Below, piece by piece: positions 3,667 through 37,072 of a stretch of 64,000 nucleotides of DNA. How positions within the stretch are numbered: position 1 is the first letter of the stretch; every line of letters starts with the position of its first letter. The DNA lies in NCBI GenBank assembly GCA_032718475.1, contig JAUCBJ010000933.1, positions 1 to 64,000 on the forward strand, read 5' to 3'. The translations under genes and the position numbers were made by a program. Source of the stretch: Nemertoderma westbladi (lineage: Eukaryota; Animalia; Xenacoelomorpha). Below the pieces are notes generated by a model, which saw only the letters and a list, made by a program, of their open reading frames with translations, did no database searches and was not told where the DNA came from.

Positions 3667-4049
3667 ACAAAAATATTTATCGAGCGTAAATAGCGCAGAT
3701 ACAGTTTCATTCTTTTTCGTAATAATTGTCCGCTATGGCTGTCTGTGTACAGTAAGCGTAGGGTTACTTTATTTACATTTTGGGAACCTTTTAGGTTTGC
3801 CATACAGCCTACCCTTGTACATTACGTTTATGAATTTGTTTGATACGGTACCGGTAGGCCTACCGGTAAGCTACATGAAAAAAAATTAAAATAGTATCAC
3901 TACCGTACCGTATCTGGCTTTCCACTTCCCTGCTATCTACCAGTCTACTGATATATGTACCAGCCTACAGTCCTAGGCTTACTGCCTACCGACTCCCTCT
4001 TGCTGTCTTGCTACTTGCTTACTGCCCTACTTTATAACCGATAAACGCC

Positions 4050-7830: not shown

Positions 7831-9882
7831 AGTTTGAACTAACAAATTGTTGTATAACTTCATATGGATGACTATATTTTTATTGTGCATAACGTCTGCA
7901 AGTTCTGAAAAAAATATTAAAAGAATTTAGAATTTAGGCCTAAAGTTTTATATTGTCATCCGAAATCCGCATTGCTCAACCAAAATTCATTTAACGTACG
8001 TCCAGTCCGTCAAGTAATAATTCTAATTGTGGTAATTTATATGTTATCGGCTCATCTTTCCTTTGTTTAAACTCCATATTTTTGTTTATTTCATATTTTA
8101 GCCATATTTATTTATACAATATGTTATAAAAGTAAAACCAAACTTATTTACAGAGTAAAATTAATTTATCGTTTGATATTCAATGTTAAACGTCTTTAAA
8201 TTATAACACCGGCGTCTAATAATAACGCGTGAACTTTCTCCTCCACTTCTCTTCCAGGATTTAATTATTTACCATTTAACATGTTTAGTAGTTTGACAGC
8301 TCGTTTCAGCTTAGCATAATTAGTCAAAAACGGCACGTTTGTATTTCAATCCATTAAAAAAACTAGTAAATGGGATAGGGGTAATCTTCCTATGCCAATT
8401 TTATTTAATTTTAAATAAATATTACAAAGCTATTCCTATAGTGAGTAAAAGCAAAGGGAAATCCACAACATCAACAACAACAAGAAACATGTGGCTATAT
8501 AATTATATACTAGAGGTCACGGCTACGCGGACTTAACCGGTTATGTTAGCAATTATTACATTGTTCGCCATCTACCGGTAAATAGCTGATATTGCTAATA
8601 TCGTACAGGTTGTAGTTGTAAGCTGTAGGCCTACTACACATGAGACGTGATTATAATCTTATCTTTCGTACACTAGCTCAGCAGAGTTGTTTTATTGTTT
8701 TATCATAAATTAACGGCTGATTTTTGTTGAAATCGTTGAATCAACATCTACAACTATTTTAAATCAGGGTTGTGTAAAAAATGGAGAATTCAGGGAAAAC
8801 TCAGGGAATTTGATATAGAGGCCAAACGGCTATTCGAGTGCTGGTCTAAGCAGCGTATAGACTTGCGATGGCTGGGTGATGCCATCCAGGTATATAAACT
8901 CATTATTTAATTGAACTGTATCCTGTTAATTTGAGTTCATGTGCGACGCGCGAATCTCTTACTGCCTTTTATGTGCAATGTTTACAACCTTTTTCATAAT
9001 ATTATAAATGGATCTTGTCATCAGAGAAAATGTGTCAAATATTATCTGCTATCTTGCCATTCTATCTATCTCGCCATTCCATTTCCTAACATCACCAAAT
9101 ATATATATACATAATATAATATACTATGTAATAATATAATAATAATATAATATGTATATATATACAGGTGCACTCTATTCGCTCTTTTGTCAGTAATTGG
9201 TGTTTGAAATATGTTTTGGGTTTTATAAAGATGGTTTGCCCGGGGCTACTTTTTGTGGTCAATTTATATACGCTGATTCAAAATATCAAAACTGTTTTTG
9301 ATCGATCAACCGTTAAAAATGAGCAGGACTTTTAAATTATTGTCAAATTGTATTTGTGTCTTTTTTATGTAAATTTCTGTAGTGACCACACTGCCAGCTA
9401 GCTGATGGAGTGGTCACCGCTTTACTTCTAATGGGTGGTCCCGGCTTCATTCCCATGCCGAGCCAGCTACAATTCTTTACGTAATGTAAATTTGGTAAAA
9501 AAATAATCGAGGCCAAGTTAACCTTTATAGCTTCTTTGGCACAGGTAAATTGCCCCTATTACGGATATTTTGCCAATAAGGAATTTCTTCAGGAAATACA
9601 ATTTCTCCATCAGCATATAGAAGAAACGAGATTACAGATTTTCCTATTGTCATTCCAAAAATGAAATTCACTTACTTATATCTACAACATAACGGTTTGT
9701 CTGTCTCAGAGGTAGCCTTGAGATGGACCCGTTTCTATATAGTATATTTTCTATATTGCAACCCACTTTGTGGAATAAAATCGCAAACCAGAATAAGTGC
9801 CGCTCATTATATTAAAGTCATTGTTCAAAACTTTTTTATTTGATAAAATATTTTTATAACTCATTAGTTAATTCACTATATA

Positions 9883-14249: not shown

Positions 14250-16307
14250 ATACAGTAGAAGTTCAAAACCGCTTTGAAGCACTTCAGTCAATGGATGAAG
14301 ACCAATCCACCGATTCAATATACCAGAATATAATAACAGCCCACAAGGAATCAGCTAAGAGGCATATCCCCCAGAAACCTAAACGAAAACAGTATGTGCC
14401 ATGGCAAAACTCTGAGGTTACTTGTAAGAGAGAAGATCTTAAGATAGCCTACAAAGTTAAAACCGAACAACCAACAACCGAAAACATTAACAAGGTTGAG
14501 AAAGCTAAGCACGATCTTAAATTGGCCTACAACATCAGCCAGGAAAAGTACATACAGGATAAAACTGAAGCAATTACAACTGCTCACATACAGCAACAAT
14601 CAAGACTTACCTGGCAAACTGTAAATGAGGTATCTGGTCGGAAAAGTTGTGCAAAGGGGCGCCTCAAAGCCGATAGTCCTGAAGAACGTGTTGGGAAGTG
14701 GAAAAATCACTTCAGCAACTTGCTTGGGCAGCCACCAAACATCGAGGTCAGACCTACAAGGAAAATATATGACAAGACACTACCTATAGAAACATGGGAC
14801 TTCACACCTGCCGAACTCTAAAGAAGCATTAAAAGCATGTCCAATAATAAAGCGAGTGGATTAGATGAAATCCCAGCGGAGGTATGGAAAACCGGAGTGC
14901 TAAATAGACCATTATTGAATGTTTGCAACCGGATGTTAAAAGGGGAAAAGCCACCACCAATTTGGACTAAAGAGGTCAACTAAAGCCTCTCCCCAAGAAA
15001 GGAGACCTCGGCATACCAACAAACTATCGTGGGATCTGTCTGCTTGTGGTAGCTGCCAAAATATACAATAAAATGATTCTATATAGGATTAGGCCTCACA
15101 TAGAGAAACTACTGCGTAAGAGCCAAAACGGATTTCGACCAAGTAGATCAACAATAGCTCAGATACTTGCACTACGGAGACTGTTTGAAGGAATCAAGTC
15201 AAAGAATCTCCCCGCAGTCATGACTTTTGTGGACTTCAAGAAGGCATTCGACTCCATCCATAGAGGTAAAATGCTTGAAATCCTAAGAGCTTATGGAATA
15301 CCAGAAGTAATTGTTGCTGGCATTGGATTGCTATATTGTGACACAGAAGCGCAGGTACTCTCACCAGATGGTGAAACTGAGTTTTTCTCAATCCTGGCTG
15401 GCGTACTGCAAGGTGACACATTAGCACCATTACTATTTGTAATTGTGCTGGATTACGCAATGAGGACGGCCACAAAGGGTGAAGATCTGGGATTCACACT
15501 TCAAGAACGCAGAAGTAGTAGATATCCGGCAACTACAGTCACAGACACCGACTTTGCGGATGACATCGCCCTGCTCTCTAATACGCTAGCAGATGCACAG
15601 CTTCTACTAAATAAAGTGGAGAGGGCTGCTAAGGAGGTTGGATTGCATATAAATGCTACCAAGACCGAATTCATGACCTTTAATGTTGATGGACACTTGA
15701 CAACCATTGATAATAATCAACTAAGGCAGGTTGATGACTTCCAGTACCTTGGATCATGGATAGAGAGTAGCAAAAAGGACATAGAAGTTAGGAAAGCAAA
15801 GGCTAGGGTAGCTCTATCAAAAATGGATACCATCTGGAAATCAGATCTCTCCAGGCACCTGAAGAGCAAGTTCATTCGAGCCACAGTGGAAAGTGTATTT
15901 TTATACGGGGGTGAGACCTGGACACTGACTAAATCACTTGAACAACGAATTGATGGTTGCTACACAAGACTACTAAGGGCAGCCCTAAACATCAGCTGGA
16001 GACAACACATGACAAACGCCGAGCTTTATGGTACAATACCACCTGTATCAACCACCCTCCGTGAACGCAGATTAAGATTCAGTGGGCACTGCTGGCGAAG
16101 TAAAGACGAGGTCATACCAGATCTACTTCTCTGGCAACCAACTCATGGAAAGCGTAGTCGTGGACGACCTGCCATAATATATCAACTTGAAAGGGATACT
16201 GAGCTTGGGAGAAACGAAATTGCGACAACTATGGAGAATCGGGAAGCCTGGAAGGATCTCATTTCCACTGTCCGAGTTCGCTCGACCTAGTAGTACTGTA
16301 GTAGTAG
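14250..16307 (+). mobile_element. 5'-truncated RTE-like non-LTR retrotransposon, frameshifted RT ORF
   Basis: RT motifs (QNGFR, FVDFKKAFDSI, GVLQGDTLAPLLF, FADDIALL, FQYLGS) and RTE-type C-terminus (RLRFSGHCWR...RSRGRP). ORF pieces 14186-14821 and 15046-16290. (TAG)n-like tail. 20-bp TSD TGAAGCGAGGGGGGAACTTT at 14230-14249 and 16308-16327. Confidence 0.92.
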
Positions 16308-16680
16308 TGAAGCGAGGGGGGAACTTTCCTCTCTTATTTTATTTATTCTTTTTGGCGGTTTGGTTAAGTTTCTTATTTATTTATTTAAATTTCGTAAGTA
16401 CCGATTTTGGGATAGAATTGCTAAATTTTAATCTGTATCTGATAACTGAGCCTCTTCCTGCGCGAAGGCCCCACGAACGTATCAATTAACGCCTATTACA
16501 GAAGTAGATATAATATGATGATTGATACCTGATTTACGATACCGGAGCAGTGTATAGGCCTACTGTATATGCTATCCTAATGCAAATCCATGCAACTCAA
16601 AAATTATAGTTTTGAGAAAAATCAATCTAAAATTAACGGATCTGCACGAAAACATGTGAATGTCTGTGTGATCATTTTCA

Positions 16681-16887
16681 ACTACTGCTGCTACTACTAC
16701 TAGGTCGAGCTAACTCGGACAGTGGAAATGAGATCCTTCCAGGCTTCCCGATTCTCCATAGTTGTCGCAATTTCGTTTCTCCCAAGTTCAGTATCCCTTT
16801 CAAGTTGATTTATATATGTTATGGCCGGTCGTCCACGACTACGCTTTCCATGAGTTGGTTGCCAGAGAAGTAGATCTGGTATGACCT
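16681..16887 (-). mobile_element. Short inverted 3' fragment of the same RTE family
   Basis: Reverse complement of ~16109-16305, including the (TAG)n tail. Confidence 0.9.
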
Positions 16888-17741: not shown

Positions 17742-17943
17742 ATGATTAATAGTTTTCTCTATCCACGATATCAACGCACTAAAGCAAATGGTGTTTTCTC
17801 CACTTGGCAACTCGTACCTAGAGGAATTTCACAGGGGACCATTCTAGGGCCAATATTGTTTGTAATTTATGTAAATTCCATAGCAAATATACCGGATATA
17901 CACTTGATACAGTACGCAGATGATACACTTATATACTGTACAA
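17742..17943 (+). pseudogene. CR1/L2-like LINE RT fragment, part 1
   Basis: GISQGTILGPILFVIYVN...YADDTLIYC. It joins part 2 in frame (IYCTNKDPL) once the solo LTR and one TSD copy are removed. Confidence 0.85.
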
Positions 17944-19178
17944 TGTTCGCGCTTTCAGACCTTTAGCAGTTTAACCTGCCAATTTTAGGTGTCCTCTTGT
18001 TTATAAATCGACTTTAGCCTATAACAATTATTTAATGCACATGAAGTAACATTAGCCGAAGCCAGTCTATGCGCGATCATTCACCCACAGTTAAGGGAGA
18101 CTGGATTCGGATGCTTTGACCTTATTGCGTTGCAGACCTACTGTATTATTCGATTGATTGTTACTATATAATCTCTGACAATATTATTCACTTTCAGGGA
18201 AATATTAACAGTTCCTTTAGGACGTGGCGCTTTAAGTATAAAACAGAGTTATGACTTATACTAAACACAACGAGATGGCTAATGATTTTCGTAAATAGCG
18301 CATTCTTTAGGAGATGCTTTATTATCTGTCACACTACTGCACACGACTTCACACTGCTGCACACTGATCTGCCGACCGTCACTGAATTTAACCATATATA
18401 AGGAGGATAGCAACTGACACATGTAGGGATTATGAAATAGCATTTAATTCACACTAAAACCACTGTAATGTAAGTCGCAATTGCTACCGGTAACCGGTCC
18501 CTCTAACCTTTAGTAGTCAAGAAGATTGGGGGTTTTATGATTATTTATCGATATTCTCCAAATATAACATATCCATCAACATATAACCATTAATAACAGA
18601 CAGTAAACATAAGTAAAACAATGCGGTGATAGTCAGCCAGTATCGGTAATACAGGTACCGCAGGTGCCAAGTGACCAGTTGTTATGGTTAGTTGCACAGT
18701 GCAGTAGGGCCAGGTGTTATTCAGACAGTCCAGTAGTATCATCAGGCCAGTCAGATAATAGATTTACGTTCTTGTAATCAAAGCCGTCTAATGTTGGCCA
18801 AAGTCTGAAACTTCTAACACAGAAGTACAGAAGAATTTCCAAGCAGTTGTTCTCGCTCAGAAAGGTAAACAAAGACCGTAGTGCATTGCGCGGTTTCCCG
18901 TAGGTCTCTGTGCAAGATAAAATGAAAATCGCTCTGATTGGTCGAGCGAGCCGAACAAAGAAAGTTCCACATCGACAGTAAATCAGTTGACAGATTTCGT
19001 CATCTGAACTACACTCTATTTAGAGTATTTGGCGTATTGCGGCATAAAATGGCTTGTTATGTCCGCTAAAACACCTACAGGGTACATTGCGGAGAAAATG
19101 GCTTGTTATGTCCGCTAAAACAACTAAACAGTTCATTGCGGAGAAAAATGACTGGTTATATCCGCAAAAGCTTTTACA
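17944..19178 (-). mobile_element. Solo LTR (1235 bp) related to the BEL/Pao LTR at 19938
   Basis: Minus strand starts TGTAAAAGCTTTTG and ends GGTCTGAAAGCGCGAACA like the neighbouring LTR; 17944-18260 aligns with 20830-21147; exact 6-bp TSD GTACAA at 17938-17943 and 19179-19184. Confidence 0.93.
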
Positions 19179-19184
19179 GTACAA

Positions 19185-19937
19185 ATAAGGATCCTCTAAA
19201 AGCATCACAAACCTTAGAAAAACACATTCTCACACTTGAAGAAATATTTTCAGACCTAAAACTAAAATTGAACAATAAAAAAACCGAATTCATGCTTATA
19301 AGCCCGCATTCTAGAACGCCTGATATAGAGGAGATTGTCTTAAAAATTAATCCGAATACGATAATTAACCAATCCAAATCAATTAAATATTTAGGTATAC
19401 TAATAGACAACAGAATGGAATGGAGGGAACACATCAACGATATAAAACATAAAATGACACATGCAATCTCCGGACTACGACAGATAAAAGGACATTTACC
19501 ACTCAAATCTAAACTTACTATATACAAGGCGACAGTCCTACCTTATCATAACTATTGCTGCGAGGTCCTAATTTCAATACAAAACAGTTACGGTGCAAAG
19601 GGAATACTTTACGGGTTAGAAAAAATACAAAATTACGGCTTAAGGGTAGTGTATAGCAAGAAAAACAAGGACATGACAGGAACCGAAATACGAAAGAAAG
19701 CAAAACTTCCTACACTGACAGCTCTACGAGAATACTTTGTATTAAAATTTTACTACAAATATATATTTAATCTAAGTACACCATTTAAGAAACTACAACT
19801 ACCATTTCTTTAATACTATAAGAACAAACGCATACTTAATAAATCCCAGAACACATAATATTAAAATACCAACTACTAGGAACAACTACGGATTTAAAAG
19901 TTTAATTGTCAGTGCTACAAAAATCTGGAACGCATCT
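19185..19937 (+). pseudogene. CR1/L2-like LINE RT C-terminal fragment, part 2 (resumes at ~36789-36860)
   Basis: LKLNNKKTEFM, SIKYLGILIDNRMEW and KLTIYKATVLPYHNYC motifs, then YGFKSLIVSATKIWNAS up to the BEL insertion site. Confidence 0.85.
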
Positions 19938-21147
19938 TGTAAAAGCTTTTGTGGGATAACTGATTCGTTTGCCTTGCTAACCAGTTCCCCCCCAGTCGCT
20001 GAATACTCTAAAAGGGGATCTATAACTCGAATAGCGCAAGCTACCAGCTTATTGGCTGATTTGCTGTACGCAGGTATCTGGGCTCTGTTTAATCGGCCAA
20101 CCAGCCTAGAAAGGTTGCGTCATAGCCTTGTTTTTGTATCTCCCAATAGAATTTGAGTTAGCCTTGATTTTGACCTATCACAGAGCTACTGAACTGAAAT
20201 TTTCCTATCTCACTGCTCTTTCTCTGTGTTGAACGGGAGCTTCGTGGAATAAGGGTAGTTGGTATCCTCGTATAGAGTAGTAGTCACGAGTTTTTCAAAG
20301 CCACGAAAGAACGGCTTTGTAGTGTTTTGTGCTTTCTGCTTTTTAGCTCAACACTAGTAGGTTTAATTATAAGGACATATATCCTTTAACTGCAACTGTA
20401 CACGGCTTTTAATAACTGCTGACACACGGCTTTTAATAACTGCTGAAACTGCTAAAAATTACCTGCTCAATCAATACTGTATACTGCTATTTGTTGTCGG
20501 TTATTCATTATATTGGTTGATGAATTATTATATTGGAATAACGAGAAATAACCCCGAAAACCCAATATTCTTGATATACCGAAGGTAAGAGAGAAAAGTT
20601 ACCTATAACGATTGTGACTTATGTTAAAGTGGTTTGAAGTGAATCTAATGTTATTTGATAGACCCTACATGAGTCAGTCTGTGTTCCTTTTATATGTGAC
20701 TAAAATCAGTGAAGATTGGCAGATTAGTGTGCAGTATTGTGCAGCATTGTGTACGAGTGAGTCTGTTAAAGAAGCATTTCCTAAAGAATGCGCCATATAT
20801 GTGAATTATAATTAAGCCATATCGTTGTGAGTAGTTTAAGTCATAACTCTGTTTATATAAATAAAGCGCCACGTCCTAAAGGAACTGTTAATATTCCCTA
20901 AGGTGAATAATATTGTCAGAGATTATATAATACTGTCAGTCGAATAATACATTAGGCTTACATAGCAATAAAATTAAACCGTCAAACCCAATCTCCCGGG
21001 AATATCCAGCGGGTGAATGATCGCGCACAGATTGGTTTCGACTAGTGTAGTGAATCAAATACTTGTCATAGGCTAAAAAGCGATTTAATATCTAGAAGAC
21101 ATCTTAATTTGGCGGATTAAACTGCCAAAGGTCTGAAAGCGCGAACA
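19938..21147 (+). repeat. 5' LTR
   Basis: TGTAAAAGC...GCGCGAACA; direct repeat of 35574-36783 with only two substitutions seen by eye. Confidence 0.97.
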
Positions 21148-21159
21148 TTAAAGGATATA
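21148..21159 (+). promoter_or_regulatory. Non-canonical primer-binding-site position (TTAAAGGATATA), complementary to LTR 20378-20389
   Basis: No TGG-initiated tRNA complement follows the LTR; the exact reverse complement TATATCCTTTAA is in both LTRs. Confidence 0.55.
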
Positions 21160-21214
21160 GCTTCTTTATTGCAGTAAGCAATAAAGTTGAAAGTACCGGT
21201 CAACCAGTAAACCT

Positions 21215-22090
21215 GAACCGGTACATCTGTAGGTCAGTAGGCCCAACTGCCAGAACCGGTACTGCCGTAGGTCCGTAGGTCCAACTGCCAGAACCGGTAC
21301 TTCTGTAGGTCCGTAGGCCTAGCTGTCCTAACCGGTACTTCCGTATAAGTACACTAGTATTATTCGATTTGATTGTTGCATACCGGTAGGCTGTTAAGGG
21401 ATTAGGGATTGATCACCCCTTATTCCTTTATATGGTTTACTTATTTCTGTCAAGTTTTATTTATTTGTAAGCCAGTATTGAACAGAAGGCGTGTAAACCT
21501 GATCAGATTGTACAGACGATTTGTAGGCTGAGCTGTTGTCTGATTGCTGTTAAGTCCGAACGAATTGCAGTGTGTGTAGATCACCTGTCCGATTAAGTAC
21601 GGTTAGGAAGTAGGGGCAGCGAATGCTGTAAGGTAAACCCCCAACTAAAGAATAAGTCGTACTACTGGGTTAGAACGCATACTCCCTAATCATTTCGGAG
21701 TCTGCATGTCCTGTAGTTTATTTAGGCTTGAGAGTAGTCTGCCATCGTTTAGTCTGTACTTTGTTTGTGTAAGTCTGTACGGGTAGCGTATAATTTTATT
21801 TAGATAATTTGTAGGCTGGATAGTTGTCTGGCTGTTGTTAGGTCTGAACGGATTGCAGCGTGTGTAGATCACTTGTCCGATAAAGAACGGTTAGGAAGTA
21901 GGGGCAGCGAATGCTGTAAGGTAAACCCCCAATTAAAGAATAAGTCGTACTACTGGGATAGAACGCATACTACCTAATTATTTCGGAGTCTGCATATACC
22001 GTAGTTTGTTTAGGCTTGATAGTAGTCTGTCAGTGTTCGGTCTGCATTTTGTTTGAGTAGTTTGTACGCGTAGCGTAATATTTATTATTC
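21215..22090. repeat. Repeats in the BEL 5' leader: about three 38-bp units and a ~290-bp tandem duplication
   Basis: AACCGGTAC...GTAGGTCCGTAGG units at ~21215-21345; ~21515-21805 repeated at ~21805-22090. Confidence 0.85.
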
Positions 22091-23399
22091 AGAGTTTATG
22101 CGATTATTCGCAACATTCATATTCCCCAAGTTTGTTCCTACAGTAATTGTGTTTGTTATACATACCGCTATAGTTAAATTAACCCCGGTACTACACGGGC
22201 TGCTTGGCGTAGGTAAAGACTGGTGATTTTGTGCATCGGTCACTCCAGCAGATGCCGTGGTTCTTTTAGCTGTTCAAGTATATTTAACTACTGATTATCT
22301 GTTGTACAAGTACTCGTACCTAATTTAGGGTTTAGTGTACAGTGCTTTCCGAGAGTAATTAGTGTAGGCATTATATTTGTGTTGTAAAGTGGTTGATAGG
22401 CACGTTCGATTAGCTCTATTAACTTCTAGGTAGGAACACTCCGTGATACATAACGTAGAACCTATAGCGATACGGCTATAGGTCGTCAGGCGGTGGTATT
22501 TTTCTATCTGGACAACGCAGTGTATTTACTACTACGTATTATTTTCAAATACCGTAGAACCCTGTCCGTTGTAATAACCAGATTTCTAACCCTTTGTTAG
22601 GCTGGTTTGTAGACTTCTTGTAAAATTACCCTAAAAATTCGTATTTTTGTGTTTTTTGTAAATTTTTGTGTTTATTTAGAGATTGTAATCTCACCCGAAT
22701 TGTACGTAATTTGTAGTATTAAGTAACTTAGGTAAATTAGAATTATTTGTTTTAGTGTCCTATAAGTAACACTTCACTGAAAGCGCACCGCTTTGTGTAG
22801 TGATTACTCCCCAGAAATAATAACATTTATTTCAAACATTGACAAAACCCATTAAAGGGTATATATATATTATAAATCAATTCAAAAGATTTATAAATAG
22901 TAGGCCTACCATACAACCATTAGGTCTCCATATCAGTTGGTCTACTGCTCAAATAGCGGTAATAAAGTAAGTAAAGTAACCAAGTAACCCTAAAAATTCA
23001 GAAATTCAATTATTTAAAATAATTGATATACCGGTATTTACGATAGGCCTATTATCTTTATTTCTATAAATTTAGGCTGAAATTATACCGGTACTTGTAA
23101 TTAATTCTAGTCCAGAATTATATACTACAAAACTGTAAGCTGTATACTGGTATTCCCGATAGGCCTATTATATATTTATATATATTTGTGCTAAAATTAT
23201 ACCGGTATTCTGTGATAAACCTAGTCTGTAATAATCGTTATATATACTATAAGCATACCGGTATTCTAATATATTATATATATCACGCTACACTGAGTAG
23301 CAGTATCGGTAATTAATTACTAGGCTAGCAGTTAATACTGAATTACTAGACTTGCTCAGACTGTAATACAGCAGTAGACATTCAACTGTATACATAAAC

Positions 23400-25598
23400 A
23401 TGTCTGATACTAAGCAGAACCTGTCAGACAGTTTATTAGATGTAACTATCTGCGACTCAGACAGAGATGTAGAACTGTCTAGTCGTAAGTTCAGTTCACC
23501 TCCCACTGTGAGGAAAGTCATCCCTCCAGTAGTAATAAAAGAACCTAGGGTGGTTCAACATCGTAGGTCTATCATAGGCACTCGAGCTCAGGTCAAACGG
23601 GACCAAGAAGCAGCGGAACAGCAACAACCCGCGAGCCAAGAACTTACTTCTCAACGGCCCGATAGCTCCAGTAGTGAAGATACGGTAGAACTGACACCCG
23701 AACGCGGAGCAAGGATGACGGATGAGGTTTATTCGGATCCCCTTCTCATCCTTCCTGCAGCCGTACTCACTAGATTATTGATCGCTGTGGAAGAACACCA
23801 GATCGATTGGGCGAGAAGCCAGCGTTCCACTAGAGATAGTTATGCTGGATACACAAGGGAAGAACTGAAGTCCATGGTTGAGTCGCAATGGAACTTTCCC
23901 GGACCCGGACTCCCGTTTGATTTATCAGAAGCTGCCTGGGAAGACATACACCGGATGGGAGTAGCCAAGGAAACCATCGATCCAGCTGTGTGGAAGAGGT
24001 CCGCAGCCGGATACGCACAGGGATTCTTCAGCTCTATAGAGCGATTAAAAGAACAACTGTTTCATCAACCTCAAGGACCTCAAGAGCAGGGATTGCTGCT
24101 TTATCAAGTTAGAGAAAGAATTCTACGAATCAGGCTAATCTTATCAGCCTTTGAGGAGGCTTCTAAACAAAGACAAGACACGTCGTTGCAAGTCGCCGTA
24201 AAGACTTGGTTTCAAAGGGTGAATCTCCAGGTTCAAGGAACAGCTCAGTTGAAAGCTCAGCTAGAGGAGCGATCAACCCATGGAGAATCAACAGACGCTA
24301 CTTTTTCCCAAGTGGAAAGTGAAGCGACGGCAGAGAAACCGCATAAGAGGGATGCCATTGACATCTATCTGTCGGACTATCAACGTTTTTTAGGTAATGA
24401 CGAGTTGAGGAGAAGGTTAGAGGGACTTAGCCCTAATAGTGAAGGAACCAAGCTTGTGTTGGATGCCATCGATGTGGAAATGAGAGCTGCGAATCAGGCT
24501 AAATTCGATGAACAACTCCGCATCGCTAGAGACCAAGAGGAAAGGGTTAAGAAAAAACGTATAGAAGACAGAAAGGCAGCGGCAGTAGCAGCAGCAGTGG
24601 CATCGGCAGAAGCGGAAAGAAAGGCGGCAGTGGCAGAGGCAGAAGCGGGAAGAAAGGCGGCAGCGGCAGAAGCCGAAGCGGAAAGAAAGGCGGCAGCGGC
24701 AGAGGCCGAAGCGGAAAGAAAGGCGACAGCGGCAGAGGCCGAAGTGGAAAGAAAAGTGGCAGAGGCAGTAGCAGAAGCAGAACGGAGAGCGACTGAAGAA
24801 ATCACCCAGTTAGAATTGGAAAACATTCAGGAGAATCAAGACTGCATAAATAAACAGTTAACAGCTAGCAATATGCAGATGATGAATCGATCTACTCCCA
24901 AACGACAGGGATATACATCATCTGAGGAAGGTGATACCACCGATACTGAAGGCAAAGGAAATAGATCTCGTTTAAGCAGACGTAAAAGAACATTCCACCG
25001 TCAGAAATTGCCTGATTTGCCTCCAGCTGTTAGAAGGCAACTAAATAACACCAACTTAGGTAGTACAGAGCCCACAGACCAAATAATTAAAATAGAAAGA
25101 CTCCCTACTATAGTAGATGAGCCTGAAATAATTAGGCCTGTTCTTGAAATCACCCCTTTGGTGATAGACATACCTGTGCTCCCTGAGACTACCTCTAAAT
25201 TCCCTTTGCATAGCACTAAGCTACCTGTGCCCCGTAGAACTGCCCCGGATACAGTTCAGGTCCTGGACCCCGAGCGAATTATTCATAATTTGTCGCCCGT
25301 TGTCCCTCGTCCGCCCGCTACAACGTTGGCGACTCCCGCTTCGGCGGTCGAATGGGTGGACGAGAGACGGCGGGGGATGGATATCCTGCTCGGGCAGATG
25401 CAGGAGACTGTCCAGCAATTCAAGGGCACAGTAAGGGAAAGTAGGCTAGAGTTGCAAGAAGTGCAGCAAAGTATCGCGCTCGAACGCGATACCCAAAGAG
25501 GTGAGGTCTCTATAGGGGTGTCGCGAACAGGCGGCGGCGGGCTCGTGAGGGTCTGGGGGCACGTTAAATATTCGAGTATAGTGCAAGGGAGTTACTGA
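23400..25598 (+). CDS. BEL element ORF1, probable N-terminal gag extension with Ala/Glu-rich coiled-coil repeats; last ~26 codons come from an insertion
   Basis: 732-aa ATG-initiated ORF inside the element, same frame as the downstream polyprotein; 11-aa AEAEAERKAAA repeats at ~24580-24790. Confidence 0.75.
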   Translation: MSDTKQNLSDSLLDVTICDSDRDVELSSRKFSSPPTVRKVIPPVVIKEPRVVQHRRSIIGTRAQVKRDQEAAEQQQPASQELTSQRPDSSSSEDTVELTPERGARMTDEVYSDPLLILPAAVLTRLLIAVEEHQIDWARSQRSTRDSYAGYTREELKSMVESQWNFPGPGLPFDLSEAAWEDIHRMGVAKETIDPAVWKRSAAGYAQGFFSSIERLKEQLFHQPQGPQEQGLLLYQVRERILRIRLILSAFEEASKQRQDTSLQVAVKTWFQRVNLQVQGTAQLKAQLEERSTHGESTDATFSQVESEATAEKPHKRDAIDIYLSDYQRFLGNDELRRRLEGLSPNSEGTKLVLDAIDVEMRAANQAKFDEQLRIARDQEERVKKKRIEDRKAAAVAAAVASAEAERKAAVAEAEAGRKAAAAEAEAERKAAAAEAEAERKATAAEAEVERKVAEAVAEAERRATEEITQLELENIQENQDCINKQLTASNMQMMNRSTPKRQGYTSSEEGDTTDTEGKGNRSRLSRRKRTFHRQKLPDLPPAVRRQLNNTNLGSTEPTDQIIKIERLPTIVDEPEIIRPVLEITPLVIDIPVLPETTSKFPLHSTKLPVPRRTAPDTVQVLDPERIIHNLSPVVPRPPATTLATPASAVEWVDERRRGMDILLGQMQETVQQFKGTVRESRLELQEVQQSIALERDTQRGEVSIGVSRTGGGGLVRVWGHVKYSSIVQGSY

Positions 25599-26531
25599 AG
25601 GCCCTCGTGTCTTGCGAACCATGAATTGACATGGTGCCGTGGTACCGTCTAGTCGGCCTGTTGCCGTACTGCCAGTCCTGTACACAGCAGGGGTGGTGGC
25701 ATAGTGTGATCTGTGGTTTGTGTGTGTACGTAGTATACGTGAGTGTGTGTATGGCCACTGCGAGTGAGTGTGGGAAACCTTGCCGGTTGGTTCAGTCACC
25801 ACCGGTTATTAGTAGGACCATATCTTTACTGCGCCCCAGCATACTTTGTGCACACAAAGTTATTTTGCCCTGACGGCAAAATAAGATACTCTCGACTCTT
25901 TAACAGTCGATACAATTTTGTCCCCTCTGATTTTGTCCCCGATTTGGTCTATTCCCGATTATGTCTTCTGTGTGTGCATGGTATGTGTCCGATTTTGTGT
26001 CTACCGTAGTGTACTCGATTTCGTGAGCATCTATTGAGTACACGTGTACAGTGACTGGTAAGTGGTGACTTGTTCTTAGCTTAGCTTTTAAGCTAGTCAG
26101 TATTGTTGGTGGAACCGACTTCCCCTCAATACTGCCGGCGAGGCGGGTGAAAACGGTCAATATTCCATGCTGGGTAGCGCAAGCCCACATGGGACAAGAC
26201 CGTCGGTTTGGCTCAAGGGCGACCTTGATGCTCGATCGCTATCGACTGGTCCACCCGCCGGTTGACTCTCTGAGTTGGCTCAATGTACAGTCAGGCCACA
26301 GTAAGTTGACAGTAGGCGAACTTTGAGTCGCCGTTCGGCTACACACGACGAGCTGTGCCGGTGTGATCGGGGGATTGAAAATTGAACCCGGGAAGCATCG
26401 GGCTACCCTCCGGCCCGGTCTGATAAAAACGGAGTCGGACTGGCCCCAAGGGTAGTGGGACAGCGTCCGCCTCATGGGTGCGCCTCGGGGAGGAGCCCAG
26501 AAGGACGCAAGCGAAATTAGTAAACACACAA
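25519..26531. mobile_element. Probable solo LTR of an unrelated family inserted between ORF1 and gag-pol
   Basis: GC-richer ~1-kb block with stops in the polyprotein frame; starts TGTCGCG, ends ...ACACACA(A); flanked by AGGGG at 25514-25518 and 26532-26536. Confidence 0.6.
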
Positions 26532-29500
26532 AGGGGTATACCACCACCCTCAGTAACAATGTGTCAACCTGTTAGGTCTGAAGTATCTCATGCGCAAGGT
26601 GTGGAGCCTACACGCATATATACTGCTAGCGAAGTCGAAACTCCTATAGTGAACCCTATTAAGGGTAATTATATGCCTGTTGATAATGACATTCCCTATA
26701 GAGTTGATCATAATCCGAGAAATTTATATACCGATAACTCGATATTAAATAACACGATGGCCCAAGAAAGTTTTACGCGTCAAATGGCTAGAACCGAAGC
26801 CCGGCAAGCGGTGAAGGTGGGAGAGATAGTCAAATTCAATGGAGATGAGATGAAATGGTTACCTTTTAATGAATATTACAAAGATAACATACAGAACTCT
26901 GTACTATCTAATGGAGAAAAACTTAGATACCTCATCGAGTGCTTGGAAGGATCTCCCAAGTTAATGGCGTTAAAGTTTATTGGACATCCAGATGGATTAA
27001 GACAAGTTTGGGACACACTAAACATCAGGTATGGTAATAGGAATAATATCGCTAAGTATTTATATGCAAAATTAGTAGCGCCCAGAAAGTTCATCAGCAG
27101 TGGGATAATAGAGTTTTCCGATGAGATTCAAGAGATCTGTAGACAATTAGATTGGTTAGGTAAGTCTCATGAATACCAAAGTTCTATGGTCATTGGAGCT
27201 GTGGCTTCTACTTTACCGAAAGGTGGGGTAGGCACACGCTGGGATAAGAAAGTACTATATATGATGGAACAACAACGACGAGACCCTACCATGGCTGATC
27301 TCATGTCATTCTTGGATGGAGAAGTGAAATTGCAACTCCTCAAGCAGTCCCGAGAGAAGACACCGGAAAACAAGGTAAGTGAAAAACCCGTCTCTAGGAG
27401 AAAGGTAACACCAGTGTGTTATACAGACGACGGCGAAAGCCAGACTTCTCAAGGAGAAGATAGCGGGAAAGACACTGATAGATCTTATTATGTCAATAAA
27501 ATGCCTAAAGATCAGGTAAGTAAATTCAAGTCTCGAGCAAATGACAGGAGAGAACCGATAAGAAAAACTCCTCCCACGTCTCCCAAGAGAATTCAGGTGA
27601 GAAAGCCCGAAGAAAAGGCAAGTGTACACAATGTGACTCAGAATAAGGTAAGTAACATCAAACCGAAATGTGCGCTGTGTGACGGGACCCACCATTTGAA
27701 TAGGTGTGATGAATTTCTAAAGAAATCATTAACGGAGAGACGCGAAGTCATGTGGGATAAGCGGTTATGTTATAATTGCCTCAGACAAGGACACCAACGG
27801 CGAACCTGTTTCTCTGACATAAGGTGTGCAAAGTGTGGTTCGAAACATCATATCTTGTTGCACGCTGAATTCGATCGAAATAGTCCGAATCAGGTAAGTG
27901 ATTCCGAGCTACATGTTCAATTCAGTGATGTGAACGACACTGATCAATCTGAGATGGAAGGATTCTATACAGACGAGTTCTCCGACGAAAACGAATCCTG
28001 TTACATGATAAATACCGCAGTGTATCGAGCACTCACATATGAAAAAGATACAGACAACGACTTTACTCTAACTACTTCTGAGCGACAACCATCTTGGAAA
28101 GAGCCATCTTCCAATGTAGGGATCCGAGAGTTTCCTGTGGTGCAGGTAAGGGTTCACGGACCTAAACGGAGTTATGTAGTGAACGCCCTCCTGGACTCCG
28201 GCAGCACAGGAACATTCATCGACAAAGAGCTAGCCGAAGATATATTTGCTGGACAACCCAAGTTCCAAACTAAGCTCAACATGTCCGGCATTATGCAAGT
28301 TTGGAAATCTACAATCACAGCGGATTATTATGTAGGAGCGTTGTCCACCCCCCAGGACGAACTAGGAGAACATAGCATAAGGTCAGTGAAAATGGTGGCT
28401 ATAAAGAACTTCGCTACTACTCAAGCAGACCTTTATAATTGGGACGAGGATGAGAGCATCCAACATCTTAACATACCTCGATTCCAGACTGATTATCCTG
28501 GAGTACAAATACTCATCGGCCAAAACGCGCATGAGGCGCTGGAGACATTGGAGAAACGGCCTGCTCAACCACAGCCACTACAGACCTATGCGGTAAGAAC
28601 TAGAGTAGGTTGGTACTTTACTGGCCCTTCCCGTAGAACACTCAAAGAAAGACTACCGCAAGAGCGCGTCTGCCAGGTGAGTGAATGGGAAGATGATACT
28701 AGTGAAGGAGACGATTCACCTGAGGGAATTCCATACTCCTCAGATAACGACGATGTTCACCAGCTTTTTGATGAGGAGAATACCATCGATCTTCTTAAGG
28801 AAAACGAGGCTTGGCAAAACCAAGTTAACTTATGTCAACTTCTCTATCCATCTGAACGAGAAGCTTATAACGACGAATTAAATGACGTCATTGAGCGTTG
28901 CAATGCCAAGACTCGAGATGAACATGCCGTAAGATTCTTTACGCAAGAGGCGGTAGAGCCCAATTCCTACGATAAAGCCTTGTCGGTGGAAGAGGAAAGG
29001 GCCAAGCAGATCCAAGAGACAACCACACGTTTCCTCAAAGATCAAGGTAGGTATGAAGTCGGTCTACCTTTCCGCAAGAAAGAACCGAAGTTCATCAATA
29101 ATAGACCCTTAGCGGAAAAAAGAATCGCGCAACTCCATCGACGCCTTACGGCTAATTCTTCAGCTAAAGCAATGTATCAAACACAGCTGGAGAAATTTAT
29201 TAGTAAGGGATACGCGGAGAGAGTACCGGAAGAAACATCTGTGACTGAAAGAACGTATTACTTAACTCACCATTACGTTCCTAAACCCGGTAAGCCACAC
29301 GAAGTGAGAGTAGTGTTTGATGGCTCCGCTCTTTACATGGGTCAATCCCTTAACTCTGAATTGTTACCCGGACCCAACTTGCTTCAATCTTTGTTGGGAA
29401 TTCTTTTAAGATTGAGACAATATTCGATTGCTTTCGCCTCCGATATAGAAGGCATGTTCTTACAAGTCAAGGTGTTAGATAGAGATCGAGATAGTCTACG

Positions 29501-32500
29501 ATTTCTGTGGTGGCCCGAAGGAGACCTCAACCAGAAACCGGTGGAGTACTGGATGACCATCCAGGCCTTTGGGATAATCTCAAGCCCTTCCAACGCCTGT
29601 TCGGTAGTGCGTACTACTGCAGAGGACAACCGAGAGGCATTCTCTAAGGAAGTGATCGACAACATCAAGAGAGACATATACATGGACGACAATCTGAAGT
29701 CCCTCCCATCAGTTGAGGAAGCCATTGATGTCGCTAAGGGAACGGTAGAGTGCTTAAAAAGAGGTGGATTTCGATTAACCAAATTCACCAGCAACTCCCG
29801 TGAGTTTCTGGAGTCGATCCCTGCGGAAGATCGAGGAGCGAAAGATCTCGATTTGATCAAAGATGATCTGCCAGAGACCAAGACACTCGGCTTGAAATGG
29901 GACACAGAGCGAGATATCCTGTTTTTCCAGCTAAAACAGCGAGATAATCCAGTTCGAACCAAACGGATTTGCTTAAGTATACTGAGCACTTATTTCGATC
30001 CATTGGGATTTATTAGCCCAGTTATATTGATTGCTCGAAGTTTGGTACAACAAATGTGGCTTGAAAACCACTCATGGGACGATCCACTTAAGGGAGAATT
30101 ATTGAAGAAGTGGATGGAATGGGAAGATTCTCTGCCGGCTATCGAAGATTTTATAATTTCCCGTTCATATTTTGGTCATGTTCTCCCTACGTATTCCTAT
30201 CAACTCCATGTGTTTGGAGACGCCAGCGATATGGGAATAGGTATAGTAGCCTATCTAAGAGTGGAAACTCCGGAGGGAATCAAAGTCGCCCTGGTTACTT
30301 CTAAGGCATTAATCAACAACAAGTTGAAAGTTCCTCGAGCGGAGTTAAAAGCGGCTCTATACGCTACAGCCATCGGCCGGAATGTAACCGAACAGATTGA
30401 CTATCCATTAGAGAAGACTGTCTATTGGACCGACGCTTTACTCGTGTTAGAGTATATAACCAATGAAGTCTGTCAGTTCAGCGTCTTCGTTACCAACAGG
30501 GTAGCCATCATACTTAGTCGCACGACGATGGACCAATGGAGACATTGCCCCGGAACGATTAATCCAGCAGACATCGCGTCCCGAGGAGCGACTCCAAAGG
30601 AATTGGTAAATACTCCCGAATGGTTAGGAGGACCCGACTTTCTCTACAGAGAAGAAGAAGAATGGCCTCCCCATCTCACAACAGCAGAGATCAGACAGGC
30701 CAAGGGAGCGGATAAAGTTAAACCCAAAACTCGAGCGAGTAAATCGAAGTTGTTTAAACCTGCGGTTCATCTATCTGTATTATTTACTTCCGGAGAGGAT
30801 GCTTTGGATCAGAAACCCACCGCCACGGATAAAGAAGTCTTGGAAATCCGTGACAAGGATTGGAAATCTGGAATACCAGATATCGCACAAGGACTCTCAC
30901 CTCTCTTGCAGAGAGCGATACGTCACTACAGCTCCTGGAATCGGCTCTGTAAAGCCGTCACCTATTTAAAACGATGTTTTCATCATCGTTACTCCGGAAC
31001 AAAGACCAATAGTGATGATGCTCCATCAACATCTGCACGAGTCCATGTTGTTAAAGATCTTCCTAAATACAAGATATCCGACAGGTTTCTAAAGGAGAAG
31101 ATCAGTTACCAGGAGCATGATGAAACCAACAAACAGATGCTGAGACTCCTACAATGCTATGAGGATTCCGATAAGTATTTCCTGTTGTTAAGAAATCCAC
31201 AGATGCGCTTAAGGGATCGCTTCTCTAGTACCATGATAGATGGGTTAATACGTGTTGGAGGCCGGCTCACCAACGCCCCATTATCCTTTGACACTAAGTT
31301 TCCCATACTCATTAGAAATCTTGACATACAAATCAAGATGATTGTAGATGTTCATAGCAAACTGTACCATGCTGGTAGAGAACGAGTTCTGAGCGAAATC
31401 CGAACTCGCTACTATTTTTATAAACCCCATAGGGCTCTGAACCAAGTTCTTAGGAACTGCATACCCTGTAGGAAAGCATTCAGTTTTCCTTTAACACAGC
31501 GAGAGGCAGAATTACCTAGGGAAAGAGTAAGCTTCTATGAACCACCCTTTACTAATACCGGTGTGGATTTATTTGGCCCTATTGAAGTATATCGTGCCCG
31601 GACTATAGTCAAGAGATGGTGTGTCATCTTCGTTTGTATGACTTGTAGAGCTATCCATCTCGATATGGTAAACGATCTATCCACCAACAGCTTCGTGTTG
31701 AGTTTACGACCACAGATCGCTCGCTTCGGAACCAGTAACACGATGAGATCGGATAAGGGAACGAACTTCATTGGCGCCAACAACGAAATTCAAGCTTACG
31801 TAAAGGACTGGAACAAAAGACAGGTGGACGATCAGCTAAGGATAACAGCGTCTAGCTGGACCTTCAACGCCGCCGACGCCCCTTGGTGGGGAGGAAGTTG
31901 GGAGAGATTGATTAGGAGCGTGAAGACTGCGTTCCACTTTATTGTACCTTGTCGCGCTTATCTCACCGACGAACTATTGCGGACGTTACTGGAGGAAATC
32001 GCCGCCTATCTCAACGAAAGACCGCTTATGCCAGTCTCTTCAAATCCTGATTCCCTGGAAGCGCTAACACCCGCGCACTTTCTACTGAAGAAACCCGTAG
32101 CCATGCTCCCACGATCGGAGATCACAGATGGAGACGAGTACTGCCGTCGAACCTGGCAACTTATGCAGTTGCTATCCCGTCGTTTCGCTGACCATTTCGA
32201 GAAACATTACCTGCCCACTCTACAACTTCGAACTAAGTGGTTTGCGCAGCAAGAAAACGTCAGCGCTGGAGACATGGTGCTTATTGTGGACCCCGATCTC
32301 CCACGTAAGCGATGGCAAACAGGACGTATCATCGAGACTTATATCTCGAGCGATGGTTTGGTGCGATCAGTAGAACTCGTCGTCATGCGGCGGAACTTTA
32401 AGAAACCAGGGATAGTCTTTGAGACTCAACAGCTCAATCGCCCAGTGGGTCGTTTATGTTTACTGGAAAGAGACAGAGAGCTCTCCGGAAACTATGGAAG

Positions 32501-32564
32501 GCAAGAAACTCTTCCCACGACCACTTCCCTAATCCAACCGACATCTAGGGACTCCCCAACTTAA
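26478..32564 (+). CDS. BEL/Pao gag-pol polyprotein; true start uncertain
   Basis: Gag core (KFNGDEMKWLPF); triple zinc knuckle (CALCDGTHHLNRC, CYNCLRQGHQRRTC, CAKCGSKHHILLH); protease LLDSGS; RT SDIEGMFLQV and YMDD; RNase H (VFGDAS, PRAEL, WTD, NPADIASRG); integrase HHCC and GVDLFGP...SDKGTNF...GGSWERLI. No internal stops over 2028 codons. Confidence 0.96.
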   Translation: MRLGEEPRRTQAKLVNTQRGIPPPSVTMCQPVRSEVSHAQGVEPTRIYTASEVETPIVNPIKGNYMPVDNDIPYRVDHNPRNLYTDNSILNNTMAQESFTRQMARTEARQAVKVGEIVKFNGDEMKWLPFNEYYKDNIQNSVLSNGEKLRYLIECLEGSPKLMALKFIGHPDGLRQVWDTLNIRYGNRNNIAKYLYAKLVAPRKFISSGIIEFSDEIQEICRQLDWLGKSHEYQSSMVIGAVASTLPKGGVGTRWDKKVLYMMEQQRRDPTMADLMSFLDGEVKLQLLKQSREKTPENKVSEKPVSRRKVTPVCYTDDGESQTSQGEDSGKDTDRSYYVNKMPKDQVSKFKSRANDRREPIRKTPPTSPKRIQVRKPEEKASVHNVTQNKVSNIKPKCALCDGTHHLNRCDEFLKKSLTERREVMWDKRLCYNCLRQGHQRRTCFSDIRCAKCGSKHHILLHAEFDRNSPNQVSDSELHVQFSDVNDTDQSEMEGFYTDEFSDENESCYMINTAVYRALTYEKDTDNDFTLTTSERQPSWKEPSSNVGIREFPVVQVRVHGPKRSYVVNALLDSGSTGTFIDKELAEDIFAGQPKFQTKLNMSGIMQVWKSTITADYYVGALSTPQDELGEHSIRSVKMVAIKNFATTQADLYNWDEDESIQHLNIPRFQTDYPGVQILIGQNAHEALETLEKRPAQPQPLQTYAVRTRVGWYFTGPSRRTLKERLPQERVCQVSEWEDDTSEGDDSPEGIPYSSDNDDVHQLFDEENTIDLLKENEAWQNQVNLCQLLYPSEREAYNDELNDVIERCNAKTRDEHAVRFFTQEAVEPNSYDKALSVEEERAKQIQETTTRFLKDQGRYEVGLPFRKKEPKFINNRPLAEKRIAQLHRRLTANSSAKAMYQTQLEKFISKGYAERVPEETSVTERTYYLTHHYVPKPGKPHEVRVVFDGSALYMGQSLNSELLPGPNLLQSLLGILLRLRQYSIAFASDIEGMFLQVKVLDRDRDSLRFLWWPEGDLNQKPVEYWMTIQAFGIISSPSNACSVVRTTAEDNREAFSKEVIDNIKRDIYMDDNLKSLPSVEEAIDVAKGTVECLKRGGFRLTKFTSNSREFLESIPAEDRGAKDLDLIKDDLPETKTLGLKWDTERDILFFQLKQRDNPVRTKRICLSILSTYFDPLGFISPVILIARSLVQQMWLENHSWDDPLKGELLKKWMEWEDSLPAIEDFIISRSYFGHVLPTYSYQLHVFGDASDMGIGIVAYLRVETPEGIKVALVTSKALINNKLKVPRAELKAALYATAIGRNVTEQIDYPLEKTVYWTDALLVLEYITNEVCQFSVFVTNRVAIILSRTTMDQWRHCPGTINPADIASRGATPKELVNTPEWLGGPDFLYREEEEWPPHLTTAEIRQAKGADKVKPKTRASKSKLFKPAVHLSVLFTSGEDALDQKPTATDKEVLEIRDKDWKSGIPDIAQGLSPLLQRAIRHYSSWNRLCKAVTYLKRCFHHRYSGTKTNSDDAPSTSARVHVVKDLPKYKISDRFLKEKISYQEHDETNKQMLRLLQCYEDSDKYFLLLRNPQMRLRDRFSSTMIDGLIRVGGRLTNAPLSFDTKFPILIRNLDIQIKMIVDVHSKLYHAGRERVLSEIRTRYYFYKPHRALNQVLRNCIPCRKAFSFPLTQREAELPRERVSFYEPPFTNTGVDLFGPIEVYRARTIVKRWCVIFVCMTCRAIHLDMVNDLSTNSFVLSLRPQIARFGTSNTMRSDKGTNFIGANNEIQAYVKDWNKRQVDDQLRITASSWTFNAADAPWWGGSWERLIRSVKTAFHFIVPCRAYLTDELLRTLLEEIAAYLNERPLMPVSSNPDSLEALTPAHFLLKKPVAMLPRSEITDGDEYCRRTWQLMQLLSRRFADHFEKHYLPTLQLRTKWFAQQENVSAGDMVLIVDPDLPRKRWQTGRIIETYISSDGLVRSVELVVMRRNFKKPGIVFETQQLNRPVGRLCLLERDRELSGNYGRQETLPTTTSLIQPTSRDSPT

Positions 32565-33079
32565 TATCGTTCGGAGTGGGCGTGTGACTCGATTATTTTA
32601 TATTATATTATTATTTTTATATTTATGTATGTATTACTATGTAATTTTATTTTAATCGTTTTATTTAATTTAGTAGAATATTATTTAGCGATTATTTTGT
32701 AGAATAGTGCAATATGTTCGTGTTTATTACGTACGTAATTACTTATATTATATTTAGTGAGACGGCGAAGAAATAATTATTTTTCTTTTTCCTTACTGCC
32801 CGTATTCTATTATAAATACGTAACTACAGTAAGATGAAATGTCCGTACTTATTAATGTACAATAAAGCCACTACTATATTTAAGTATTATTGGTAGGCAG
32901 AGTATTAGGAATGCAAAGTTCAGATCCTCGTGTCTCGGCTAAACCAAGCTCTGGGTAGACCTTGGAAACGACTTGCCTCTTCACACTGACATTGCTTCGT
33001 GCGATATTGCTCTCATACCGTATATTAAATAATACATATAGTAGCGTGATGTCCCTTTAACAGTAGCGTATAACGCAAA

Positions 33080-33405
33080 ATAAATCTGTTAAACCCTTTG
33101 ACCATCTGTAATTCTAGTCGATTAAGATATCGCGGCACCCACCGATATACTTGAAAGACAAATTCTAGAATCAGTGGTTAACGTCCCCAGACAAGTTCTG
33201 GAATAAATCGGTGCCCATCTCAAATATTAATTATTTAATATTTACAAATCTAATAAATCAAAATCTGTAAAATTCAGATCCTTCAACAATTCTAGTCAAT
33301 TAAGATATCGTAGCATTTACCGATATTCTTAAAAAAGACAATTGTCATAGAATTAAGGATCTTGTGTCCCTAGACATGTTCTAGAATCAAAATATGTCCA
33401 TTTAA
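33080..33405 (+). other. Two diverged ~180-bp repeats with conserved predicted hairpins in the BEL 3' region
   Basis: ATTCTAGTC..TTAAGATATCG-loop-CGATAT..CTT..GAC..TAGAAT at 33111-33171 and 33288-33354, each followed by a short stem (33187-33201, 33370-33384). Confidence 0.7.
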
Positions 33406-34212
33406 TTATCAAATAATAAAATTTCAGGGAATAAATTTAAATTCATGCCTTTTAATGAATTTAATAAATTGCCATTTTTACGCAATTTATAAAGTTCCCA
33501 AAATTCCATTAATTAATAGATCAAGGGAGCGGAGATTTATCTTATCATGCGTATGAGTGTGTGAAAGTCTCCCAAACATAGTCAATAGCCGATAAAATTC
33601 ATAAAGTCATGTATAAAACAGAACATTGACTATTAAAGAATACTATTAAATAACATCCCAGATCTGTATGCATTGGAATTACCCTAATTCTACCGCTAGC
33701 TTTGCATAATGTCACCATAGCAACAACCACGCTAGAATTAGAATTGAGTTAAGAGAACAATAGAAAGCTTGTCCCATTGAATAGCATAAGGAATAAATAG
33801 TGCACTGATAGTATCCAAGGATACATAATAATACAGTGACATTCTGGAAGGCATTGACTAACGGACAAATGGCCCGAATGTGTGTAGTTGTGACCAGTTG
33901 TGTGGTATTTGTGAGTTTATAGGTGAATGTTACTGCTAAAGTGTGTTTACAGTAGCTAGTCACAATCGTGAAAGTAACCTAACTCTCCAAGGAAAACCTG
34001 AAGTACATCTAAGCCTTTGGGACGGACAGTTGAGTGACTTGTGCCGGTTGTCGTTGTCTTTGTACGGCTACGTCGTTGGCGAAAGTACAGCGGCGACAAC
34101 ACATCGGCGCTGAGGATCTCGCACTGTCCGGGGGTTGATTGGGGTAGGCAGCGACGTCCGCTCGCCTAAATATAAACTCCTTATAATATGGATAAACTCA
34201 TATATAGCAGAT

Positions 34213-35495: not shown

Positions 35496-35573
35496 CTGTT
35501 TAGAGTATTTATGTATATTAGAAATTGTGATTTTGTATATTTTATAGACTTAAATCCCATTTTCTGGGAGCGG

Positions 35574-36783: not shown

Positions 36784-37072
36784 CATCTCTCATTACTCTA
36801 AAACAAATACGAAAACTAAAAACTTACATGGATAGCATTAAAAATCACTATTATATACAATATATGACCGTGACTCCATAAAATAGCAACAAGCAACGTT
36901 TGTAATTGTAAGTATGGGGTGTGTGTGTGTCTACGCGCCAATGTATTGGGTATGTATGTACAACATCAATATGACTCCAGTGGATACACAGTAATGTAAT
37001 TTGTGTAGGTCAAGGATTTGTCTGCCATACATGACGATTATTCCCATAAATTATCAGCCGGGGCCACCCTCC

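Follow-up and report, generated by a model that had tools for sequence, protein, structure and literature searches.

In the Tf1 retrotransposon, the RNA's initial 11 bases pair with the primer-binding site and are then cut off by RNase H, according to the accessible part of one account (PMC7175516). Self-priming of this kind is described for the Tf1/sushi group and for Tj1 in the available portions of two sources (PMC7175516, PMC4600332), and it is predicted for Tcn1 and for the copia elements of the TAR/Houba/Osr-1 group in the open sections of a third (PMC6317226). The Tf1 site is also known to be flanked by two accessory duplexes in a structure called the 'pretzel', as far as the accessible text of the preprint goes (bioRxiv 10.1101/2022.12.06.519325). 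For the Belpaoviridae, the ICTV gives an element size of 4.2-10 kb and an 18-nt site for host tRNA-Arg or tRNA-Gly (PMC8742986), while the replication of BEL/Pao elements is called poorly understood in the same source. In the case of Cer1, a site once said to be lacking was later found, according to the available part of the report (PMC3315495).

Among titles and abstract openings, a scope that left subscription papers and repeat-database reports largely outside, no publication was found on self-priming in BEL/Pao, and none in which 'self-priming', 'splice junction', 'retrotransposon' and 'LTR' occur together. A word search of one BEL/Pao survey (PMC3118150) showed that primer, PBS, tRNA and priming are all absent from it; similarly, PBS and tRNA are absent from another (PMC554778). 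The accessible portions of four further papers (PMC13524379, PMC3601003, PMC3286476 and PMC8220671) yielded no BEL priming data.

The element considered here lies in a stretch of 64,000 nucleotides of Nemertoderma westbladi DNA, hereafter the window. As far as the available parts of the sources describe Tf1 and Tf2 of Schizosaccharomyces pombe, Tj1, Tf1/sushi and Tcn1, the window element resembles them in having a site after the 5' LTR that is complementary to 11-12 nt of its own LTR, in the lack of a tRNA match and in the presence of RNase H. The Tf1 group, however, belongs to the Ty3/gypsy chromoviruses, whereas the window element is BEL/Pao and has no chromodomain match in Pfam. Unlike in Tf1, its loop measures 758 nt, and in most of the BEL relatives the sequence that pairs would arise only by splicing. 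Accessory duplexes like those of the 'pretzel', so far as the open text describes them, are weakly suggested in the window element and not supported in 13 relatives. The likeness to TAR/Houba/Osr-1 of the plant Ty1/copia elements is that self-priming is predicted there from complementarity alone (accessible part of PMC6317226); superfamily, domain order and the plant hosts are different. With the Belpaoviridae of the ICTV, the element shares TG...CA LTRs, a short target duplication, a Gag with CCHC knuckles, the order PR-RT-RH-IN and a purine tract, but it lacks a TGG site, measures 16.8 kb and carries an extra upstream ORF.

Structure and classification of the element

The element, which is 16.8 kb in total, young and of high copy number, is oriented on the forward strand. 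A 5-bp target-site duplication, CATCT, is present at 19933-19937 (left copy) and 36784-36788 (right copy), and it encloses a 5' LTR (19938-21147) and a 3' LTR (35574-36783), each of 1210 nt with TG...CA ends. The two LTRs are 99.8% identical and differ only at 20597 and 20984. The Gag-Pol ORF (26427-32564; 2045 aa), assigned by domain matches and translation, contains DUF1759, three CCHC knuckles, a protease, an RT with YMDD, RNase H, an integrase and DUF5641. In Pfam, Peptidase_A17 (E 1.5e-35), DUF1759, DUF5641 and Integrase_H2C2 were matched. The frame is open through RT and RNase H, the order of Pol is PR-RT-RH-IN, and all four acidic residues of RNase H appear to be present when the translation is read by eye. 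A polypurine-tract-like sequence, GGGAGCGG, at 35566-35573 adjoins the 3' LTR and resembles the tracts of relatives.

Ahead of gag-pol, and separated from it by about 830 nt, lies an extra frame, ORF1 (23367-25598; 743 aa from stop to stop), with alanine/glutamate-rich repeats; searches of Pfam and Atlas gave no family match for it. From pol to the 3' LTR (32564-35573), a stretch of about 3 kb holds short ORFs only, of at most 134 aa, and no env-like frame was seen in it.

Among the matches listed, PF05380 (the Pao domain) was found in all 120 RT-RH homologues, the best of which are 41-44% identical. In a tree that contained no named reference elements (Sinbad, Suzu, Sailor, BEL, Pao, Tas or Dan), the window element forms a long isolated branch without a close relative. 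It is a BEL/Pao element (Belpaoviridae) and no member of Tf1/sushi. The initial annotation had taken it for a recently active BEL element.

A few other features of the window may be mentioned. Just downstream of the element, at 37471-38748, there is a fragment of a second BEL/Pao pol with Peptidase_A17 and an integrase zinc finger. Tandem arrays of 66-bp units (53 copies, about 98% alike) and of 24-bp units occupy 44-3500 and 5793-7900; they have open frames on both strands and flank a Lin-7 gene (4038-4691), a single ORF whose best matches are 80-83% across bilaterians. An Arf-family GTPase is encoded in one uninterrupted ORF at 50350-51033. MITE-like elements with long terminal inverted repeats are present at 16109-16887, 40673-41524, 59289-59871 and 61005-62011.

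The post-LTR sequence and its partner in the LTR

The primer-binding position, 21148-21159, does not begin with TGG. It is the exact reverse complement of a 12-mer inside the 5' LTR (20378-20389, the candidate self-primer) and of the second copy of that 12-mer in the 3' LTR (36014-36025). The match is exactly 12 nt long and begins at the first base past the LTR. This observation, which was the starting point of the initial annotation, was re-computed and holds. The nearest TGG downstream of the 5' LTR is at 21433, with none across 285 nt, and an 18-nt tRNA-Arg or tRNA-Gly site of the ICTV type is absent, there being no TGG before 21433. No tRNA genes were found within the 64-kb window, and a search of 17800-37000 against Rfam gave 0 matches.

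Dinucleotide shuffling of the LTR produced a match of 12 nt at offset 0 in 6 of 20,000 trials, in line with the earlier estimate by hand of less than 1 in 1000. When offsets of 0-5 nt from the LTR were allowed, 16 of 20,000 shuffles reached 12 nt, and against the real LTR the same length was attained at 9 of 52,116 other positions of the window. The A+T content of the post-LTR 12-mer is 83%. A copy of it with one mismatch is located 1.7 kb into the leader, at 22852-22863; it is preceded by CA, has no LTR end ahead of it and is probably due to chance.

Copies of the family in sequencing runs

The family was surveyed in contigs of four (X1, X3, X4 and X5, from four studies) of the seven public sequencing runs listed; X4 is taken as RNA by guess only, and its joints are of the same kinds as those of the DNA run X5. 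In X1 and X3, the depth over the LTR and the leader exceeds that of the flanks by factors of several hundred up to several thousand, and it continues across the 5' LTR boundary. The site is, therefore, a trait of the family and not a local deletion. No TGG form of the site occurs in the variants and loose ends listed for the four runs, a listing short of 24 loose-end rows, and this removes the objection that related copies carry a normal TGG site and that only this one has lost it.

Within 21095-21225, the sole change of at least 1% in X1 and X3 is A>C at 21152, the fifth base of the site, with 26% of the depth in X1 (44 contigs) and 28% in X3 (27 contigs); X5 has 21193 G>A in addition, together with three small indels. 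The change at 21152 would break the fifth pair unless 20385 changes as well, and no variants of 20385 are present among the 40 of 452 rows listed. In single contigs of X1, X3 and X4, the LTR end is slightly altered and a different 14-nt segment comes next, after which the leader sequence resumes at 21162-21164, and X4 holds one further related form of the site. A single unchanging host primer would hardly be expected to leave such variability between steady flanks.

On the side of the partner, contigs break or diverge directly after the 12-mer, at 20388-20394. These joints and loose ends, together with the alignment, mark the beginning of a copy-variable segment (20395-20480) in which family copies differ strongly. 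Two contigs of X4 switch to a different upstream sequence at 20351. The 12-mer may thus sit in a short conserved block, a reading with few contigs behind it. The summed contig depth in X1 is 235,000 over the 12-mer region and about 610,000 over the site; contig depth is not copy number, and the difference is weighed neither way. It could mean that many copies have another 5' half of the LTR. A contig of X3 matches 19697-19937, stops matching where the LTR begins although 35 of its letters remain, and may represent the empty site of the full element.

A solo LTR of a sister subfamily

A solo LTR of a sister subfamily is present on the reverse strand at 17944-19178 (1235 nt). It sits inside a LINE RT fragment and has a target duplication of 6 bp, against 5 bp for the full element. 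Its empty site was found in X1 and X3, and the insertion is, therefore, polymorphic. Over the 3' 670 nt it resembles the LTR of the element at 76%, while the 5' part is diverged.

The solo LTR does not contain the 12-mer, and its best match to the site of the element carries 3 mismatches. The diverged variant with the 14-nt segment, on the other hand, pairs with it over 12 of 12 positions at offset 0 (18032-18021; 11 Watson-Crick pairs and one G-U), 77 nt from the LTR end. This was equalled in 53 of 20,000 shuffles, or about 1.6% when three variants and two LTRs are allowed for. No such match in the solo LTR was obtained with the further form from X4 or with the 21152 variant. The aligned segment of the solo LTR was also considered as partner of the family site and was rejected, as no match to it occurs among the site variants listed. 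If the solo LTR and the variant belong to one subfamily, the pairing partner would appear to move within the LTR between sisters.

Related BEL/Pao loci

Ninety-eight BEL loci, 79 from metagenome and 19 from genome contigs, were compared. They are probably DNA of host animals in those assemblies; the 19 loci L080-L098, which lie within bacterial genome bins, are most likely host-animal contamination. The LTR-end pattern gave no match in metagenome and viral contigs, nor did a protein search of viral contigs for the element. A direct repeat around RT was found in 43 of the 98 loci, and the inner end of the 5' LTR could be fixed by copy divergence in 17. In a first pass with offsets of 0-3, 11 of these 17 reached at least 10 nt (the 3' copy being used for L057). 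Subsequently, L050 was removed, its repeat end not being LTR-like, the end of L097 was shifted by 2 nt, and the offsets were widened to 0-4 after L035 and L083 had been seen.

With these settings, a match of 10-15 nt to the own LTR is present in 14 of the 16 relatives with a defined LTR end, and its letters differ between families. In control cross pairs, at least 10 nt was reached in only 5 of 268, and 11 nt in one. It had been suggested earlier that the post-LTR 12-mer and its partner should be compared for covariation, and between families they do covary. The two misses, L020 and L086, have 8 nt each. A site that begins with TGG occurs in none of the 16, although L087 has TGG from its second base. 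Once the kin pairs L015/L097 and L082/L084 are merged, the matches represent 12 lineages spread over the tree.

Eleven of the 14 (L011, L015, L032, L035, L064, L082, L084, L087, L088, L093 and L097) pair solely across a GT-AG junction. The LTR introns of these split-type relatives measure 76-697 nt and have a pyrimidine-rich acceptor; nine of the 11 donors read GTRAG, where the search demanded GT only. Contiguous matches are those of L017, L083 and the 3' copy of L057. At L057 the 5' copy has the acceptor and the 3' copy the joined form, and the locus may consist of two collapsed copies. Nine further loci, for which only the LTR start is defined, give 10-13 nt as the best of 5-21 candidate ends, without a null; six are split, two contiguous and one tied, and they are supportive only.

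In the window element, the distance from the primer to the LTR end is 758 nt, as against 44-175 nt in the 14. Split pairing is not found there, the match being contiguous and no split match being longer. Since the signal of the relatives is borrowed from families that are 38-44% identical, it sets a prior and is not covariation of the window element itself.

Splice-like words do occur in the window LTR. A strong donor-like GTAAGA lies at 20585, and a TAG at 21069-21071, 76 nt before the LTR end, is kept in both LTR types and occupies the relative position of the acceptors of the relatives. A joint from 20585 to 21069-21071 was rejected as partner of the site, because by eye it does not complement it; a second role or a relic is possible for this pair.

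Promoter clues and predicted folding

A TATA-like word, TATAAG, is present at 20368-20373 and begins 10 nt before the 12-mer. If it functions as such and is used, transcription would therefore start near 20398, downstream of the 12-mer. In the relatives, TATA-like words were noted by eye 22-31 nt before the primer in 4 of 13. There is also a strong acceptor-like site (a pyrimidine-rich AG) at 20346, which hints at a transcript start further upstream. At most 7 nt ahead of the primer, GGA occurs in 6 of 13 relatives; the window element has it too, a post hoc observation made by eye.

The predicted probability of the pair between the 12-mer and the site depends on where the RNA begins: it is up to 1.0 for starts at 20371-20380, 0.27 for 20365 and 0 for 20340 and 20250. 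Fold prediction was discarded as support for the long-range pair, as 33 of 35 shuffled loops also give at least 0.98. The local hairpin of the LTR 12-mer noticed at the outset does exist (20371-20386; arms 20371-20375 and 20382-20386), with 5 bp and a weak -3.4 kcal/mol. Where upstream sequence is attached, as in the 3' LTR copy, this hairpin is predicted to cover the core of the 12-mer. The predicted probability of being unpaired at 36018-36022 is 0.00-0.28 in the context of the 3' LTR versus 0.93-0.98 as a free 5' end.

Two putative accessory duplexes were noted. Nine nt of the LTR (20767-20775) are exactly complementary to 21160-21168 in the leader, a weak and post hoc candidate that was equalled in 32 of 5000 shuffles at offset 0, in 184 of 5000 at offsets 0-2 and in 31 of 200 by energy. 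A further duplex is predicted between the segment 21018-21036 and the LTR end (21130-21148); the solo LTR preserves this fold, but it was equalled in 31 of 300 shuffles and is not significant alone. In the relatives, accessory duplexes were not supported, with 1 of 13 below 5%. A 9-bp hairpin directly after the site (21164-21186) has a 5' arm that can alternatively pair with the LTR at 20965-20972, and the two forms are a possible switch.

Probable priming by LTR-derived RNA

The post-LTR signature is real and exceeds chance; it runs through the family and belongs to a clade-wide pattern. Its best reading is Tf1-like priming, in which minus-strand DNA is primed by the element's own LTR-derived RNA and not by a host tRNA, because the complement lies at the boundary, TGG is missing, the RT-RNase H frame is open and an own-LTR match is present in 14 of 16 relatives. 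We give this reading a probability of roughly 0.7.

In such a scheme, transcription would start at or just before 20378, and the 5' end of the RNA would fold back onto the site over the 758-nt loop. RNase H would then cleave after 20389 and free the primer, which would be extended into U5. During plus-strand synthesis the primer would be recopied, so that site and primer stay matched. The primer of the window element would be contiguous, while most relatives would build theirs by splicing an LTR intron. The small predicted hairpin would hide the 3' LTR copy and reserve priming for the 5' end; it may, in this way, play the part of the unspliced intron of the relatives, with the 3' copy barred from competing.

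Several observations speak against self-priming, namely the spacing of TATAAG, the acceptor at 20346, the 758-nt loop, the A>C change at 21152 and the different location of the site in the solo LTR. What had been proposed in the initial annotation is thus retained in part: self-priming stands as the best-supported reading, given the relatives and the lack of a listed TGG form, but a start at the 12-mer is not what the TATA-like word predicts.

A wider version of the proposal is tentative, and we would sooner doubt it than rely on it. According to this version, a large BEL/Pao branch in marine animals dropped tRNA priming in favour of LTR-derived RNA, for the most part made by splicing out an LTR intron, which would restrict priming to the 5' end. 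The window family would represent a form independent of the intron, with a hairpin-hidden 3' copy; the primer would have been relocated between sister subfamilies, and the site overwritten by the LTR piece that primes.

The strongest competitor, though an unlikely one, is that the pairing is real but structural, or made with the 3' LTR copy, in circularisation, packaging or a switch, while some other piece of the LTR serves as primer, or one supplied by the 3' copy or by the dimer's second RNA. It would be consistent with the predicted start downstream of the 12-mer, with the several pairings possible in the leader and with the fact that a different LTR site pairs with the post-LTR sequence of another subfamily. 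However, the LTR end is exactly where the match begins, which is the register needed by a primer, and the length of the match is primer-like, as in the relatives. The core of the 3' copy is, moreover, predicted to be paired in the hairpin (0.00-0.28 unpaired at 36018-36022), so that pairing of the site with this copy, the other option raised initially, is disfavoured.

It is improbable, to a still greater degree, that a host RNA, either an internal tRNA fragment or another small RNA, acts as primer and that the LTR match is fortuitous. Priming by tRNA-Arg or tRNA-Gly is what the ICTV records for the Belpaoviridae (PMC8742986). Half-tRNA priming exists in some Ty1/copia lineages (accessible part of PMC6317226), and the Cer1 site, once called missing, was eventually found (available part of PMC3315495). 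Against this, a match by chance has a likelihood of about 3 in 10,000, the site differs between subfamilies when its flanks do not, and the 14 matching relatives do so with different letters.

Least probable of all is a by-product, either an inverted LTR copy that became fixed at the boundary through a single copying error or an A+T-rich coincidence, with priming by some other route: the 83% A+T, the near-copy at 22852, which no LTR end precedes, and the choice of this element out of many DNA windows, which favours rare matches, are outweighed by the many copies that carry the site (depth being continuous over the boundary), by LTRs here that are 99.8% identical and by a signature that recurs in 12 separate lineages.

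Significance for BEL/Pao elements

If priming by LTR-derived RNA is true, it extends Tf1-type priming to BEL/Pao. As self-priming is known or predicted in Ty3/gypsy and Ty1/copia, BEL/Pao would, therefore, be the third superfamily. It would also account for the many such elements without a visible tRNA site, and annotation tools that demand a TGG site would undercount them. The 3' fragments of tRNAs act in silencing, and elements primed by their own RNA may escape it. In the relatives, a splice-built primer would link the onset of reverse transcription directly to splicing by the host.
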